Position numbers and translations under genes: made by a program
Notes under the pieces: model-generated
The model's input: only the letters and a program-made list of their open reading frames with translations
What the model was told of the DNA's origin: nothing
Databases searched by the model: none
Part shown: positions 31,584-35,758 of the stretch, piece by piece
Position numbering within the stretch: position 1 is the first letter of the stretch
Layout: every line of letters begins with the position of its first letter
From: a virus
Strand: one strand, 5' to 3'
UHGV virus genome: UHGV-0036008
Length of the DNA stretch: 42,664 bases

Positions 31584-32435
31584 ATGAAAAAAATAAATTT
31601 GTTTTTTGGCATAGTGCTTTCAATAGTCTCTGTAAATCCTACAGCTGCCAGTTCATTGCAATGCAATAAGGATAACTTTGATGCATGCAAAACGTGTGAA
31701 CAATTATCAAAGGCTATCGACTTAAAAGAACCTAATCGTGGCGATTACTATAGAGGGGCTTTATGGAATGGGCTTTACGCCTCTTATGTAATTAATTGCC
31801 CTGTGGTTGCTGAGAAGTTACTGAGCCATGGTGCTATACCATCATATGGCGGATATATGGGGTCTATGGGGGCGGTTCTGACAGGAAAATGGCCTCATAA
31901 CAATGAATCAATAAATCTTTCATGGGCAGATTTGCTTATAAAACATGGATTTGATGTTAATAGGCATACGGGGAATTATAAATCAGCTACTGAAGTATGG
32001 GCTATAGATAAAAAACAGATTGAATATAAGTCAGTTTTTGACAAGTTAATTCAATCCAGCGAAGTAAAACCACTCGATCCTTCAAGAAATTTAGAATGGT
32101 GTGCGTCTGAAGGGTATCGCTCAGTTGTCGTTTATTCCCTTAACTCATGTATAGAAAATGCTATAAAACGTTTGGATGATGGTGTTTCTTCAGCGTCTGA
32201 TATTTCATCAGCAGCCGTAAATTCCTGTACTAGCGATGTAGAAAATTTCAATAAGCATTTGGCATGCAAAGCAGCTGTTAAAGAAAACTCTGATAAAGAG
32301 AGAAGCGACGTTTACCAGTTATTAACCAGTGATAGTCAAATGAATAAAAATGTTATTGATATGCTGAAGGAAAGAAATATTGAAACGGTTCTTGAATTTA
32401 GAGCTGAAAATCGATCAGCGAAAACTGCACAGTGA
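31584..32435 (+). CDS. Secreted ankyrin-repeat-like moron protein
   Basis: 283 aa; N-terminal signal peptide (MKKINLFFGIVLSIVSVNPTAASS); ankyrin-like segments (LLSHGA, LLIKHGFDVN); AT-rich gene. Confidence 0.5.
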   Translation: MKKINLFFGIVLSIVSVNPTAASSLQCNKDNFDACKTCEQLSKAIDLKEPNRGDYYRGALWNGLYASYVINCPVVAEKLLSHGAIPSYGGYMGSMGAVLTGKWPHNNESINLSWADLLIKHGFDVNRHTGNYKSATEVWAIDKKQIEYKSVFDKLIQSSEVKPLDPSRNLEWCASEGYRSVVVYSLNSCIENAIKRLDDGVSSASDISSAAVNSCTSDVENFNKHLACKAAVKENSDKERSDVYQLLTSDSQMNKNVIDMLKERNIETVLEFRAENRSAKTAQ

Positions 32436-32437
32436 TC

Positions 32438-32467
32438 AAACAGGCCGCTTTCGCGGCCTTGTTTTTA
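32438..32467. terminator. Bidirectional intrinsic terminator
   Basis: GGCCGCTTTCGCGGCC hairpin with flanking T-run, between convergent genes. Confidence 0.6.
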
Positions 32468-32626
32468 ACGAATGCCACCGCCGCCCGGGCGGGAATCCGC
32501 AGAACGCCCACCGCAGCGGGAGCCGTCAGCGGCAGTATCGCTGTCGTGCTGACAACGACCGGCAAAGGCCTGAGTTGAAGCCACCAGAGACAACAAAACG
32601 AACAGTGCAGCAAATGCTTTTTTCAT
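32465..32626 (-). CDS. Small secreted protein (53 aa)
   Basis: Internal Met of track ORF; signal-peptide-like MKKAFAALFVLLSLVASTQAFA; ends at terminator hairpin. Confidence 0.35.
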   Translation of the reverse strand: MKKAFAALFVLLSLVASTQAFAGRCQHDSDTAADGSRCGGRSADSRPGGGGIR

Positions 32627-32698
32627 TGTGACATTTCCATCTATAAGCCACCTCGATGTGGCGTCAATGAGTGTAGCACTGACTTTTGTTTCGTCCAC

Positions 32699-32719
32699 AA
32701 AAAAGCCCGCAGCGCGGGC
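32699..32719 (-). terminator. Intrinsic terminator after AT-rich moron operon
   Basis: GCCCGCAGCGCGGGC hairpin plus U6 on minus strand, abutting stop codon. Confidence 0.55.
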
Positions 32720-33159
32720 TATTCTTCTTCATCATTAAAAAGCGGATTGTTGTTTCCATCTGATGAAAGGAAAGGTATGTGTTCTCTTGAAAATCCAACA
32801 ATGACAATTTCATTATCATTTTTTGCATAATGAATGCATTCATTAGAATGCCTTCCGCCAGGGTTGAAATTTAAGTTAATGGTATAATTCTTAAATGTGT
32901 TTGGATACCATGTTGGCCCACAATGATAATGCCAATAATTCTCTTGCTCATAATTGTCTGAGCCGGGAATTTTATCATGGTTATCATCAACCCACGAGGG
33001 CTTGTTTTTTCCAACAAGCGCCCTTCCATTGGCAACATCCTCTAAAAAACTTTGTATGATTTTTATTTCATCATCAGTAAGGAAAGGTCCGTCTACAGCG
33101 AAAGGGGTGTTGCTTTCCCCATGTAGAAAACTATTAGATATTCTAATGTTAAACTTCAA
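32719..33159 (-). CDS. Hypothetical AT-rich protein (146 aa), second gene of two-gene moron operon
   Basis: TTG start 6 nt after AGGAG; about 33% GC; no recognisable family. Confidence 0.45.
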   Translation of the reverse strand: MKFNIRISNSFLHGESNTPFAVDGPFLTDDEIKIIQSFLEDVANGRALVGKNKPSWVDDNHDKIPGSDNYEQENYWHYHCGPTWYPNTFKNYTINLNFNPGGRHSNECIHYAKNDNEIVIVGFSREHIPFLSSDGNNNPLFNDEEE

Positions 33160-33179
33160 GGAAAACTCCTGATGTGCTT

Positions 33180-33346
33180 CTATTTGGAGCGAAATGCCGC
33201 CTTGAAGTCGCTGAAAGATGTTCCTGTCTGGTAAACCATATCCTTGTCGCGCTCTTTGCTTGCGCGGCCAAGCATAACTTTTCCAATGACATCCCAGCAT
33301 TGCTTGGCTTGTTCATTGTGCTGAGTACGATTTTTCAACGCTGTCA
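33180..33346 (-). CDS. Hypothetical 55-aa protein, first gene of two-gene moron operon
   Basis: Not in ORF track; ATG preceded by AGGAGG RBS; hand-translated MTALKNRTQHNEQAKQCWDVIGKVMLGRASKERDKDMVYQTGTSFSDFKAAFRSK. Confidence 0.45.
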
Positions 33347-33359
33347 TATCGCGCCTCCT

Positions 33360-33375
33360 TTACCTTTAAGGTAAT
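33360..33375. promoter_or_regulatory. TTACC-N5-GGTAAT site upstream of AT-rich moron operon
   Basis: TTACCtttaaGGTAAT, 14 nt upstream of the small ORF start. Confidence 0.5.
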
Positions 33376-33422
33376 AGTACGCTATTCACCCACAGTCTGC
33401 AATCTGTACAGAATTATTTAAA

Positions 33423-34157: not shown

Positions 34158-34313
34158 GGTGGTTATCTCCACTTAGTGATTTTAATCACCACCGCAACGC
34201 CAATTACTGGTGGTGAACTGGACAAGGTTGGCGTACCGGCCTAAGTGGTACCGGCGTCCTTTCGGACCCCTGCCCAGCCCACCATAATTCGGATATAGCT
34301 GTGCTTAACGCAT

Positions 34314-34420
34314 AAAAAAACCACGTCTGGCGTGGTATGCGCCACTTAGTAACCCGGGACGCCAATCCCGGCACTGGATTTTGCCAGTGCCCGATTACTA
34401 TGGCACAAGAGGAGTGCGAT
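34314..34420 (-). ncRNA. Candidate structured leader / attenuator or small RNA upstream of Bro-N antirepressor gene
   Basis: Minus-strand hairpins (CACTGG..CCAGTG; CCGGGA..TCCCGG) ending in terminator ACCACG-CCAGA-CGTGGT plus U7 at about 34314..34336; no ORF. Confidence 0.3.
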
Positions 34421-34426
34421 GTAAAT

Positions 34427-34535
34427 TTACCGCAAAGGTAATGATAAACGCGAAGAAATATTAAAATCAACCGTATTTGGTTGATTGCGTTTAACGCTTG
34501 ATCACCTGAAAGCAAGATATTACCTTTAAGGTAAT
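34427..34535. promoter_or_regulatory. Two ATTACC-N5-GGTAAT sites in divergent promoter region
   Basis: TTACCgcaaaGGTAAT (about 34427..34442) and ATTACCtttaaGGTAAT (about 34519..34535). Confidence 0.55.
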
Positions 34536-34554
34536 GTTATTGTGAGGAAAAGCA

Positions 34555-35283
34555 ATGGAAGTTTTCTGGATAGTTGTTGGTGTGGTTGCGGTGATTATTT
34601 ACGTTATCAACCAGAACAAGACTAAGATCTCTGATCGTACGGTCGTTAATCAGAACAAAACGATAAAGACCGAAGATGGGGAGGTAACGATTAGTCGTAC
34701 ACAGGTGATAGAACACACATCTACTCAGTTTCAAAAAACTGGAGGTAACGCGCCTGATATTTCCGTACCTCCTGCTTATGATAGTGCGGTAATCCAGACA
34801 TATTATAAACAGCAGGAGTTAGCAAAAGAGAGGCAACTGATTCAGCCAAAGCCGTTTACAGCTGAGCTTCCACCTGGAGTGTCAACGCGTCCGGCATATC
34901 ATGGAAGATTCCCTGGTGATGACATATCGTCTCAGTCATCTAAAAAAGCACCTCAGGCAGTATCAGAGCCAGCAAGAATACCTTCTGTATCGCCGCCAAA
35001 AGAAGAATCAGCTAACAGAGTTTCAAGTGGCCGCAAGCAGTGTTTGCGATGCAGAATAAACCTTCCATATGACAAATTCCGGAAATCGTCAAAAAATCCA
35101 GATGGATTGACTAAGTGGTGTGCAAGGTGCCTCGATGGCCCAAAGAATACACGCCATATGAAGTGGTGCCCAATTTGTAATGTCCGCAGAAAACGGACCA
35201 GCTTTTACCCTAATAATCAAAATGCGGACGGCTTAATGGCATGGTGCAAAACGTGCTGGGACGAGCACAAAGCGAAACGATAG
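34555..35283 (+). CDS. Membrane-anchored protein with duplicated C-terminal zinc-ribbon motif
   Basis: N-terminal TM helix (VFWIVVGVVAVIIYVI); two repeats of C-x2-C...N-x-DGL-x2-WC-x2-C. Confidence 0.5.
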   Translation: MEVFWIVVGVVAVIIYVINQNKTKISDRTVVNQNKTIKTEDGEVTISRTQVIEHTSTQFQKTGGNAPDISVPPAYDSAVIQTYYKQQELAKERQLIQPKPFTAELPPGVSTRPAYHGRFPGDDISSQSSKKAPQAVSEPARIPSVSPPKEESANRVSSGRKQCLRCRINLPYDKFRKSSKNPDGLTKWCARCLDGPKNTRHMKWCPICNVRRKRTSFYPNNQNADGLMAWCKTCWDEHKAKR

Positions 35284-35307
35284 GCCGCTCTTGCGGCCTT
35301 TAAATTT
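35283..35307 (+). terminator. Intrinsic terminator
   Basis: GGCCGCTCTTGCGGCC hairpin followed by TTTAAATTT. Confidence 0.5.
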
Positions 35308-35565
35308 ACCGGGTTTGTTTTCGTAATTGTTCGGCACAATAGTCGAGATGTGTTTGCAGATCCTGCATAGACATCTGTGAGCTGGTGACGTAGTTAATCA
35401 GTGCAGTCAGTTCGGCAAGTGGGCCATCGACATTAAATCCATCCTTATCGAGATCCCGGAGTAATTTCATCAAGTGCGATCCCTCCACCAGTGACCTGAC
35501 GCCTCCCGGCGTGTGAATCCTTTCGGTAAATCCGTCTTCCAGTGGATAGTGATACTGCTGCATCT
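35306..35565 (-). CDS. Stand-alone copy of the antirepressor C-terminal domain (86 aa)
   Basis: From internal Met with GGAGAAG RBS; YHYPLEDGFTERIHTPGGVRSLVEGSHLMKLLRDLDKDGFNVDGPLAELT...DLQTH aligns with C-termini of ORFs 1334..2053 and 33447..34157. Confidence 0.45.
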
Positions 35566-35638
35566 TATCTTCTCCATGCAATAACTGTATGTTTATACAG
35601 TAACAAATAATTTGTTTGCTATCCAGCACGTTTTGCAA

Positions 35639-35655
35639 ATTACCCGAAAGGTAAT
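35639..35655. promoter_or_regulatory. ATTACC-N5-GGTAAT site between stand-alone domain gene and tailspike
   Basis: ATTACCcgaaaGGTAAT. Confidence 0.5.
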
Positions 35656-35758
35656 ATCTATTGGTATTTATAGTCTTTTTATCCATATATGGTTTTTCAG
35701 GTAATAGAATAACCAGATATGCGGCGCAACGGGTGCTGCGACTATCTGGAGATTTAAC

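Follow-up and report, generated by a model that had tools for sequence, protein, structure and literature searches.

The DNA considered here is a 4-kb interval (positions 31584-35758) of the virus genome UHGV-0036008, a stretch of 42,664 nucleotides referred to below as the window. It lies between the ejection-protein genes and the tailspike gene and resembles several described phage loci. One of these is the repressor-antirepressor (Rep-Ant) switch of phage SPC32H, which is said to go back to Kim and Ryu (J Virol, 2013) and Kim et al. (PNAS, 2016), with structures PDB 5D4Z and 5D50; the 2013 work reportedly placed ant under LexA control. In citing papers, the SPC32H Rep tetramer is reported to have palindromic binding sites (PMC9638917), and Ant, itself tetrameric, is described as taking that Rep tetramer apart (PMC9638917; bioRxiv 2025.11.27.690993). 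In the immunity-I (immI) regions of phages P1 and P7, the antisense RNA C4 is transcribed upstream of the antirepressor gene. In the Gifsy-1 isrK-orf45-anrP locus (Hershko-Shalev et al. 2016, PMC4825925), isrK ends at a terminator of its own, and the read-through transcript continues into a C4-like RNA (STnc1160) and an antirepressor gene; an isrK/c4/BRO arrangement has been noted in APSE phages (PMC7313666). In phage P22, sieA, mnt, arc and ant lie between gene 16 and the tailspike gene, and escape mutations against SieA map to the ejection proteins (PMC10461980).

The window represents an Escherichia coli prophage, a temperate podovirus that belongs to the epsilon15/phiV10 (Uetakevirus) type and has an endosialidase tailspike. 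In our judgement the interval is probably the antirepression (immunity-I-like) control region of this epsilon15/phiV10/SPC32H-type prophage, and doubles as its main cargo slot. Its core would consist of two antirepressors that share one repressor-binding domain and answer different inputs (DNA damage and small RNAs), while the cargo would occupy three slots around that core, with g1, g2, a two-gene slot (g3b/g3) and g5 as their contents.

We took the gene set of the interval from PGAP calls in near-identical E. coli prophages. The same genes are called there as were listed in an earlier note on this DNA, made from its sequence alone, and all open reading frames (ORFs) of that list are real. 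Its placement of the interval between the ejection genes and the tailspike, with genes on mixed strands, is borne out by the gene positions. It had counted six genes, whereas there are seven protein genes (a two-gene operon and five others), namely g1, g2, g3, g3b, the Bro-N gene, g5 and ant, and in addition two RNA genes identified with Rfam, isrK and C4, which lie on the minus strand in the gap upstream of the Bro-N gene and had both been missed (Table 1). No tRNA was found within the 34173-34554 gap, the structured sequence there being isrK and C4. All products of the interval fall in recurrent PHROG families. An NCBIfam search of the products returned sub-threshold noise alone, and PDB sequence searches with g1, g3 and g5 gave nothing meaningful. 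The earlier view that no product could be assigned to a family no longer holds, since Ant (matching PDB 5D50_E), a protein with Bro-N and Ant domains and a RelE/ParE-fold protein can now be named. The stand-alone antirepressor gene begins at 35563 (85 amino acids, aa) and not at 35686. The claim of intrinsic terminators also stands: 18 terminator-like hairpins were observed against 4.7 expected, with good ones after g1, g3, g5 (35282-35299) and isrK. A promoter scan gave 9 matches, compared with 9.7 in shuffled sequence; all promoter assignments below are consensus matches and are tentative for that reason.

Table 1. Coordinates of the features in and around the interval (RBS, ribosome-binding site; HTH, helix-turn-helix; sRNA, small RNA; a/b and a'/b', C4 targets and the C4 stretches complementary to them).
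Feature	Position	Strand	Description
Rep (prophage repressor)	6616..7200	-	194 aa; HTH; outside the interval; partner of both antirepressors
Last gene of ejection block	28193..31582	+	1129 aa; PGAP 'DUF919 family protein'
g1	31584..32435	+	283 aa; predicted exported protein; signal peptide MKK + hydrophobic stretch + TAA/S; nine invariant cysteines
Hairpin terminator	32442..32459		AGGCCGCTTTCGCGGCCT then TGTTTTT; between convergent g1 and g2
g2	32465..32626	-	53-aa pre-peptide, predicted exported or membrane-anchored; PGAP 162-nt gene
g3b-g3 operon terminator	32704..32720	-	AGCCCGCGCTGCGGGCT then TTTTTTG; overlaps g3 stop codon
g3	32719..33159	-	146 aa; toxin candidate; RelE/ParE fold
g3b	33180..33347	-	55 aa; antitoxin candidate; strong RBS AAGGAGG; 20 nt upstream of g3; phrog_8607
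Operator palindrome	33360..33374		TTACCTTTAAGGTAA; overlaps -10/+1 of predicted g3b promoter (TTGCAG-17-TACTAT); abuts RBS
Bro-N antirepressor	33447..34157	-	236 aa; Bro-N residues 22-117; C-terminal Ant-type repressor-binding domain 155-231
Bro-N mRNA leader with C4 targets	34167..34203	-	a2 UUGGCGU 34203-34197; b2 CUAAGUGG 34176-34169
C4 antisense RNA gene	34206..34289	-	RF01695; 66 bits against gathering score 45
C4 pairing stretches	34248-34241; 34234-34228	-	b' loop CCACUUAG; a' ACGCCAA
isrK sRNA	34314..34390	-	RF01394; 67.7 bits against gathering score 50; own terminator 34336-34320
isrK decoy targets	34365-34359; 34349-34342	-	a1 UUGGCGU; b1 CUAAGUGG; copies of C4 targets
Operator palindrome	34427..34441		overlaps -10 of upstream isrK promoter-like site TTGATT-18-TATCAT; abuts -35 of proximal one, TTTACA-17-CATAGT
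Operator palindrome	34520..34534		20 nt upstream of g5 RBS
g5	34555..35283	+	242 aa; N-terminal transmembrane helix, long low-complexity linker, two C-terminal CxxC...CxxC zinc ribbons; phrog_6762
Hairpin terminator	35282..35299		between convergent g5 and ant
ant	35306..35563	-	85-aa antirepressor; homologue of epsilon15 gp19, phiV10 gp24, SPC32H Ant
LexA (SOS) box	35584..35602		TACTGTATAAACATACAGT; predicted, near-consensus; 22 nt upstream of ant start codon
Operator palindrome	35640..35654		upstream of ant promoter; 65FD equivalent at 39184
Tailspike	35759..38878		complete endosialidase (K1 polysialic-acid depolymerase) + S74 chaperone domain, on epsilon15-type chassis

The part of the interval next to the tailspike gene closely follows SPC32H. 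The product of ant matches PDB 5D50_E, the 'Anti-repressor protein' of that phage (E 4e-47), over 83 aligned residues, nearly all of them identical or conservative, and Rep matches 5D50_A, the 'Repressor' (E 4e-42), over residues 1-190, so that both chains of the solved complex have a counterpart in the window. The Pfam content of Rep is HTH_3 alone, without the S24 peptidase (autocleavage) domain. With the start of ant at 35563, its control region extends to 35758 and includes the sole LexA box in the window, at an offset that is kept in seven relatives (phiV10, TL-2011b, EC.W1-9, ZX5, two E. coli prophages and Salmonella phage 65FD). The gene with its control region occurs in 531 of 5426 complete E. 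coli genomes, and it adjoins the tailspike gene in Salmonella, Morganella, Serratia and Providencia prophages. Given the homology to SPC32H Ant, the conserved LexA box, the number of genomes and the position beside the tailspike across genera, we regard ant as backbone and not as cargo. DNA damage would derepress ant through the LexA box, and Ant would then remove the non-cleavable Rep from its operators. The likeness to SPC32H includes the minus-strand orientation of ant beside the tailspike gene, the upstream LexA box and a Rep that lacks an autocleavage domain. The difference is that the window has a second Ant domain, fused to Bro-N and placed under RNA control.

This second antirepressor carries a Bro-N domain (Pfam E 1e-19) and matches phrog_130, 'anti-repressor Ant'. 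Its C-terminus (residues 155-231) matches PDB 5D50_E (E 1e-13) and shares 42% identity with the ant product of the window. In phage ZX5, overexpression of the Bro-N antirepressor from the same locus lowered lysogeny (PMC9782041). Upstream of the gene, isrK and C4 score above the Rfam gathering thresholds in the window as well as in nine related loci. isrK is the equivalent of the Rfam c4-a1b1 element (RF03163), which scores 44.1 bits at 34351-34403, just below the gathering score of 46.7. In the direction of transcription, the order is the operator palindrome with the promoter-like sites, isrK and its terminator, C4, a 48-nt leader and the Bro-N start codon. The loop of the second C4 hairpin, CCACUUAG, is an exact complement of CUAAGUGG, which is present both in the Bro-N leader and in isrK, and the C4 junction ACGCCAA is an exact complement of UUGGCGU in the leader and in a hairpin loop of isrK. 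The b2 target overlaps the Shine-Dalgarno sequence GGAG (34170-34167) of the Bro-N gene. Transcription from the isrK promoter would cover isrK, then C4 and then the Bro-N gene; C4 RNA would pair through its two short stretches with the Bro-N leader, cover the RBS and keep translation off, and isrK would offer decoy copies of both C4 targets.

We conclude that the Bro-N gene, isrK and C4 form an antirepressor module of the P1-immI/Gifsy-1-IsrK type. With P1 and P7 it shares a C4 RNA (RF01695) transcribed upstream of the antirepressor gene, two antisense stretches complementary to a downstream, RBS-overlapping pair (a2/b2) and to an upstream pair (a1/b1, RF03163), and alleles with matched specificities of the sort seen between P1 and P7. 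In P1 and P7, C4 is released from a precursor by RNase P; the 3' end of C4 in the window (...CACCACCA) resembles a tRNA acceptor end. With Gifsy-1 it shares an isrK that has its own terminator and is complementary to the C4-like RNA, which follows it, and an antirepressor gene on the read-through transcript. Some features of the locus, however, weigh against a simple transfer of either scheme. No icd-like or orf45-like ORF is present between isrK and the Bro-N gene, the longest ORF there being 14 codons, and with icd and orf45 lacking, neither the P1 nor the Gifsy-1 mechanism can be carried over unchanged. Unlike in P1 and P7, C4 would target the RBS of the antirepressor gene directly, the antirepressor is a Bro-N/Ant-domain protein and not P1 Ant1/2, and the phage is a podovirus. 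Unlike in Gifsy-1, there is no orf45 equivalent for translational coupling and no AntQ antiterminator beside the locus.

Among related loci, compensatory changes are found on both sides of the C4-target pairing, with at least six b alleles and three a alleles (ACGCCAA, AGACCAA and GUGCAAA). The b' loop of EC.W1-9 reads CCUUUGUAG, opposite a leader target CUACAAAGG and an isrK target CUACAGAGG. phiV10, TL-2011b and ZX5 have a common loop, CCUUUUAG, with CUAAAAGG as the target in both leader and isrK; in Hafnia phage yong2 the loop UCUCUUGCGA stands opposite UCGCAAGAGG in the leader and UCGUAAGAG in isrK, and in PhiR26_1 the loop UUGAGUAG faces CUACUCAA in both places. By eye, the C4 loop GGUUUC of VT2-Sakai is likewise found opposite GAAACC in the leader. 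A matrix of C4 against leaders calculated with RNAduplex mostly gave the best scores to cognate pairs, but it was noisy since the calculation opens hairpin stems, and we therefore rely on exact complementarity. The allelic C4/target sets probably define specificity groups. The isrK-C4 unit is present in 253 phage records, Stx phages included, and the whole isrK/C4/Bro-N module in 475 of the 5426 genomes, that is, in most of the E. coli relatives.

Two further observations concern this module. A leader segment conserved in all alleles, GGUGGUGA (34186-34193), is the complement of UCACCACC, the 3' strand of the stem that closes C4, and could compete with that stem in the unprocessed transcript. 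Coding sequences annotated as 'Ash family protein' overlap C4 in ZX5 (1509-1622) and in Hafnia yong2 (1248-1931, where isrK is covered as well); these are probably mis-annotated RNA genes.

Both antirepressor units, and some of the cargo, carry copies of the palindrome TTACC-N5-GGTAA. Allowing at most one mismatch, there are 14 sites in the window compared with 0.86 expected, a count reached in 0 of 100 shuffles. Those outside the interval are at 6482, 6544, 7256, 7304, 7641, 9587, 9649, 13231, 13249 and 16442. They stand on both sides of rep (6482 and 6544; 7256 and 7304): two lie between rep and a divergent cro-like gene, and two flank a leftward promoter (TTGACA/TAATTA) just past the rep terminator. 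Further sites stand ahead of the DUF1064 gene, of terS and of the head operon. Salmonella phage 65FD has 19 palindromes against 0.63 expected, three on each side of the repressor gene and one before ant, others preceding terS, the head operon, the lysis genes and the integrase gene. From this arrangement we infer that TTACC-N5-GGTAA is the operator bound by Rep, and g3b/g3, isrK, g5 and ant are probably under its control. Because the palindromes are copies of one phage-wide operator clustering around rep, the cassettes that carry them appear to be wired into the lysis-lysogeny circuit rather than freely expressed in the lysogen.

Two points weigh against assigning the palindrome to a Rep that represses. 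The assignment is made by position alone, and the centre of the palindrome at isrK is ~44 nt upstream of the proximal start, a spacing at which activation is possible instead of repression. The sites might conceivably belong to another regulator, for example a host factor, an activator of the phage or the Cro-like protein encoded at 7355-7585, in which case they would be uninformative on repression in the lysogen. Sites that precede late, lysis and integrase units are indeed unusual for a CI-type repressor, and one copy lies beside a g3 homologue in a lambdoid Klebsiella prophage. However, the densest clusters (two to three sites) flank rep in both phages and overlap divergent promoters in the manner of classical left and right operators, and palindromic sites are reported for the SPC32H Rep tetramer (PMC9638917). 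We therefore consider another regulator to be quite unlikely and retain Rep as the probable ligand.

Several properties of the palindromes are recorded here on their own account. A copy precedes almost every transcription unit, not the early ones alone. At 9649, the end of the palindrome is 3 nt away from the ATG of the downstream DUF1064 gene, whose mRNA should accordingly have almost no leader. Two operator sites have a different inverted repeat, AACCAAAT-NN-GGTT, as their neighbour (7661-7674 and 34469-34482), and in both cases a -35-like TTGAT element comes directly after it (three strand matches against 0.49 expected). An MqsA-type reading of the palindrome (ACCT-N3-AGGT) was rejected, as most copies misfit this narrower motif.

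The distribution of the genes among relatives bears on how the interval was assembled. The phage records nearest to the window are EC.W1-9, HEMP4, TL-2011b, phiv142-3, ZX5 and phiV10. Although 565 of the 5426 E. coli genomes share parts of the region, just 12 cover at least 80% of it, which marks the region as highly mosaic. Salmonella 65FD holds a small membrane protein and ant in the interval; Morganella, g1 and ant; phiV10, small genes, the Bro-N/C4/isrK module and ant; ZX5, a two-gene cassette, the Bro-N module and ant; and Serratia, g1, extra genes, a YafO-like pair, a Bro-N gene and ant. TL-2011b additionally has a P22-type Arc/Ant/sar set. Among the E. coli genomes ant (531) and the Bro-N module (475) are followed by g5 (129), g1 (106) and g3b/g3 (77). 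As the relatives carry graded subsets, the interval is best described as a core of regulatory genes in which three or more slots have received insertions independently, and not as one island. The accessory cassettes are g1, g2, the g3b/g3 pair and g5. In TL-2011b the P22-type immI set comprises an Arc-like repressor, Ant and sar RNA (RF00262), located at 2269-3453 and 2440-2507; together with isrK/C4/Bro-N and ant, this amounts to three antirepressor genes in one phage.

The earlier note had read the whole 4-kb interval as a single moron island with lysogenic-conversion or anti-phage functions, expressed from the prophage under private operators. The position is certainly a known cargo site, as sieA, mnt, arc and ant of P22 (PMC10461980) and the extra genes of TL-2011b illustrate. 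g1 and g3 are AT-rich, g1, g3b/g3 and g5 each occur in 77-129 genomes, and terminators are enriched. The expectation that this is a variable, cargo-accepting position was correct, the relatives ranging from ant alone (65FD, beside its small membrane protein) to the full set, and the proposed comparison with related phages did reveal empty sites: g5 is missing from phiV10 and ZX5, and 65FD has ant and no Bro-N module. The island itself, however, does not survive this comparison. ant and isrK/C4/Bro-N are backbone regulators with known homologues, present in ~475-531 genomes, and the different gene subsets of the relatives point to piecemeal assembly. The operators are not private: four were found, at 33360, 34427, 34520 and 35640, none is present at g1 or g2, and the sites are shared phage-wide. 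A general richness in AT holds in part. The guanine-plus-cytosine (GC) content is 44.2% for the interval, 48.7% for the window, 44.9% for the tailspike gene and 48% for the ejection gene; low values are limited to g1 (36.9%), g3 (35.6%) and the intergenic spacers, the remaining genes being of backbone-like composition (Bro-N gene 51.6%, ant 48.4%, g2 58.6%, g5 normal). Of the two moron traits, variable presence and atypical composition, both are seen in g1 and g3; g5 varies in presence with a normal GC content, and ant and the Bro-N module have neither. PADLOC defence-system models matched 0 of 8 products. A single island is therefore improbable, and a control region with independently acquired cargo accounts better for these data.

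Within the cargo, we lean towards reading g3b/g3 as a toxin-antitoxin pair of type II. As modelled with AlphaFold2 (pLDDT 91.7), g3 has a high-confidence RelE/ParE fold. The invariant motifs of the protein are GKNKPSW, YWHYHCG, IHY and S..H.PF, and the invariant Lys, His and Tyr residues of its family fall in the region aligned to RelE/ParE toxins. A set of 1.84 billion proteins contains 123 cluster representatives of this family. Erwinia persicina encodes a g3 homologue next to a 58-aa protein that shares 40% identity with g3b, and the two genes form an isolated insert beside accA. Other two-gene units occupy the same slot in relatives: TL-2011b and Serratia have a YafO-family toxin with a 59-aa gene, EC.W1-9 has a DUF2335 protein with a 108-aa gene, and strain CUVET20-PYO2 has a pair of unknown 110-aa and 62-aa proteins. 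The arrangement as a two-gene operon with a small upstream partner resembles known RelE/ParE modules (RelBE, YefM-YoeB, DinJ-YafQ, HigBA and YafNO), and YafO-family pairs are what the slot holds in some relatives. Unlike typical members, g3, at 146 aa, is larger and has an N-terminal extension, and the palindrome at the g3b promoter is the phage-wide operator and not a private antitoxin site.

A number of results count against a toxin under Rep control. g3 matches no catalogued toxin family (Pfam, NCBIfam and PADLOC; RelE, ParE, YafO, YoeB, HigB and others), and ten distant members of its family have no Pfam match either. The N-terminal 45 residues of g3 lie outside the RelE core. Identification of g3 as a YafO toxin, suggested by the annotation of the TL-2011b slot, was rejected at the level of sequence (hhalign probability 0.1, no Pfam match), and support extends to the broader RelE/ParE fold alone. 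In lambdoid Klebsiella prophages, a 161-aa g3 homologue lies in the nin region (3391-4486) behind two other small genes (95 and 102 aa), and it is preceded by ATTACC-N5-GGTAAT despite the different phage type, which misfits a simple Rep-operator view.

It may be, alternatively, that g3b/g3 and g5 are early lytic genes which are silenced by Rep and come on at induction or infection, serving host shut-off, action against competitors or killing upon aborted induction. The shared operator overlaps the predicted -10/+1 of g3b and lies directly upstream of the g5 RBS, a layout like that at the leftward early promoter beside rep. The promoters concerned, however, are consensus matches from a scan that found no more of them than in shuffled sequence, continuous expression with autoregulation is the norm for type II toxin-antitoxin pairs, and the Erwinia copy of the pair has no TTACC-N5-GGTAA palindrome. 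We regard this explanation as rather unlikely. If g3b/g3 is a toxin-antitoxin pair gated by Rep, the toxin might, more speculatively, be released only when repression collapses and act as a kill switch triggered by induction or superinfection.

The remaining cargo consists of predicted exported and membrane proteins. The g1 product has a predicted signal peptide. On weak fold evidence, its N-terminal half bears a slight likeness to ankyrin repeats and its C-terminal part is a helical bundle; no Pfam family was matched at E<=0.1, the Ank repeat profiles included. The gene starts 1 nt past the stop codon of the ejection gene and has no promoter or operator of its own. The 3' end of the 1129-aa ejection-protein variant is found in 120 of the E. 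coli genomes, and g1 in 106 of these 120 prophages. Serratia and Morganella likewise have g1 behind an ejection protein of 1129-1131 aa, with 40-60% identity and matching divergence, and homologues in Klebsiella are 84-89% identical. In four genera g1 has thus been inherited together with a single ejection-protein type and cannot be called a recent insertion.

The same start 1 nt behind the ejection gene, the absence of a separate promoter or operator, the synteny in E. coli, Serratia and Morganella, the close Klebsiella homologues and the 106 of 120 prophages would also suit a lytic-cycle accessory of the ejection machinery or of lysis, that is, a late periplasmic helper and not an exclusion or conversion factor. 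A cleaved signal peptide is, however, incompatible with packaging into the capsid alongside the ejection proteins, the GC content of g1 (36.9%) departs from that of the ejection gene (48%), and relatives with other ejection-protein types are entirely without g1. We regard such a helper role as rather unlikely. A role of g1 as a periplasmic entry-exclusion factor against related phages is proposed by analogy with SieA of P22 and is doubtful at present. The interval as a whole does have the position of the P22 gene 16-gene 9 interval (sieA, mnt, arc, ant, sar), from the ejection proteins to the tailspike, and in P22, too, an antirepressor module is combined with an exclusion gene, one that targets ejection proteins. 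It differs in that the window has no Mnt, Arc or sar, and in that g1, predicted to be soluble and exported, is unrelated to the inner-membrane protein SieA.

The N-terminal signal or anchor of g2 ends AFA/G, and the 31-aa tail behind it contains two cysteines and many Gly, Ser, Asp and Arg residues; the protein matches phrog_14503 ('membrane associated protein') and phrog_3117. The gene occurs without g1 in TL-2011b (gp43) and is lacking in an otherwise close prophage of strain 2013C-3033. The zinc ribbons of g5 have matches in the endonuclease VII, HNH and Lar-like PHROGs, at the ends that bind zinc, and Pfam Stc1 gave a sub-threshold match. Homologues of g5 are confined to the Enterobacterales; in phiV10 and ZX5 its site is empty and isrK abuts ant, in Providencia the gene is inverted, and in Buttiauxella it lies within a non-phage element. 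Any function of g2 and g5 as cargo is putative.

Elsewhere in the window, a tRNA-Arg(TCT) gene (16043-16119, minus strand) separates the packaging genes from the head genes and is on the opposite strand to both, and near the left end of the prophage there is an above-gathering match to Rfam sRNA-Xcc1 (RF02221; 2095-2184, minus strand, 64.2 bits). The tailspike gene is frameshifted in the near-identical prophage of strain CUVET20-PYO2.

The core mechanisms of the interval are already known, from SPC32H Rep-Ant and from C4 of the P1 type. What appears to be new is the combination of both in a single phage that uses the Ant domain two times, the C4 allelic series in this phage group, the reach of a phage-wide operator into cargo cassettes, an uncatalogued RelE-fold toxin family and the linkage of g1 to one ejection-protein type. 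We put forward only tentatively that all parts of a wider scheme hold together. This scheme would comprise two-channel antirepression (LexA and C4/IsrK, with at least three C4 alleles in E. coli prophages forming an immI-type heteroimmunity layer undescribed for the genus), a Rep-gated RelE-fold toxin, and g1 as an exported ankyrin-like exclusion factor co-evolving with the ejection protein that it blocks.

Prophages of this type occur in about 1 in 10 complete E. coli genomes, and some of them bring capsule-degrading or O-antigen-modifying genes. For annotation, the tailspike-proximal interval can be treated as an induction switch with three cargo slots, and several errors can be corrected: ant recorded as a 'hypothetical protein', C4 recorded as an 'Ash family protein', and isrK and C4 left unannotated. 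Shared Rep/Ant types and C4 alleles would predict which prophages induce or cross-induce each other. The locus also offers a compact, uncatalogued family of candidate RelE-fold toxins and a candidate periplasmic exclusion protein tied to one type of ejection protein. Current understanding is not overturned by these results; rather, known mechanisms are extended to a common and little-studied group of prophages.

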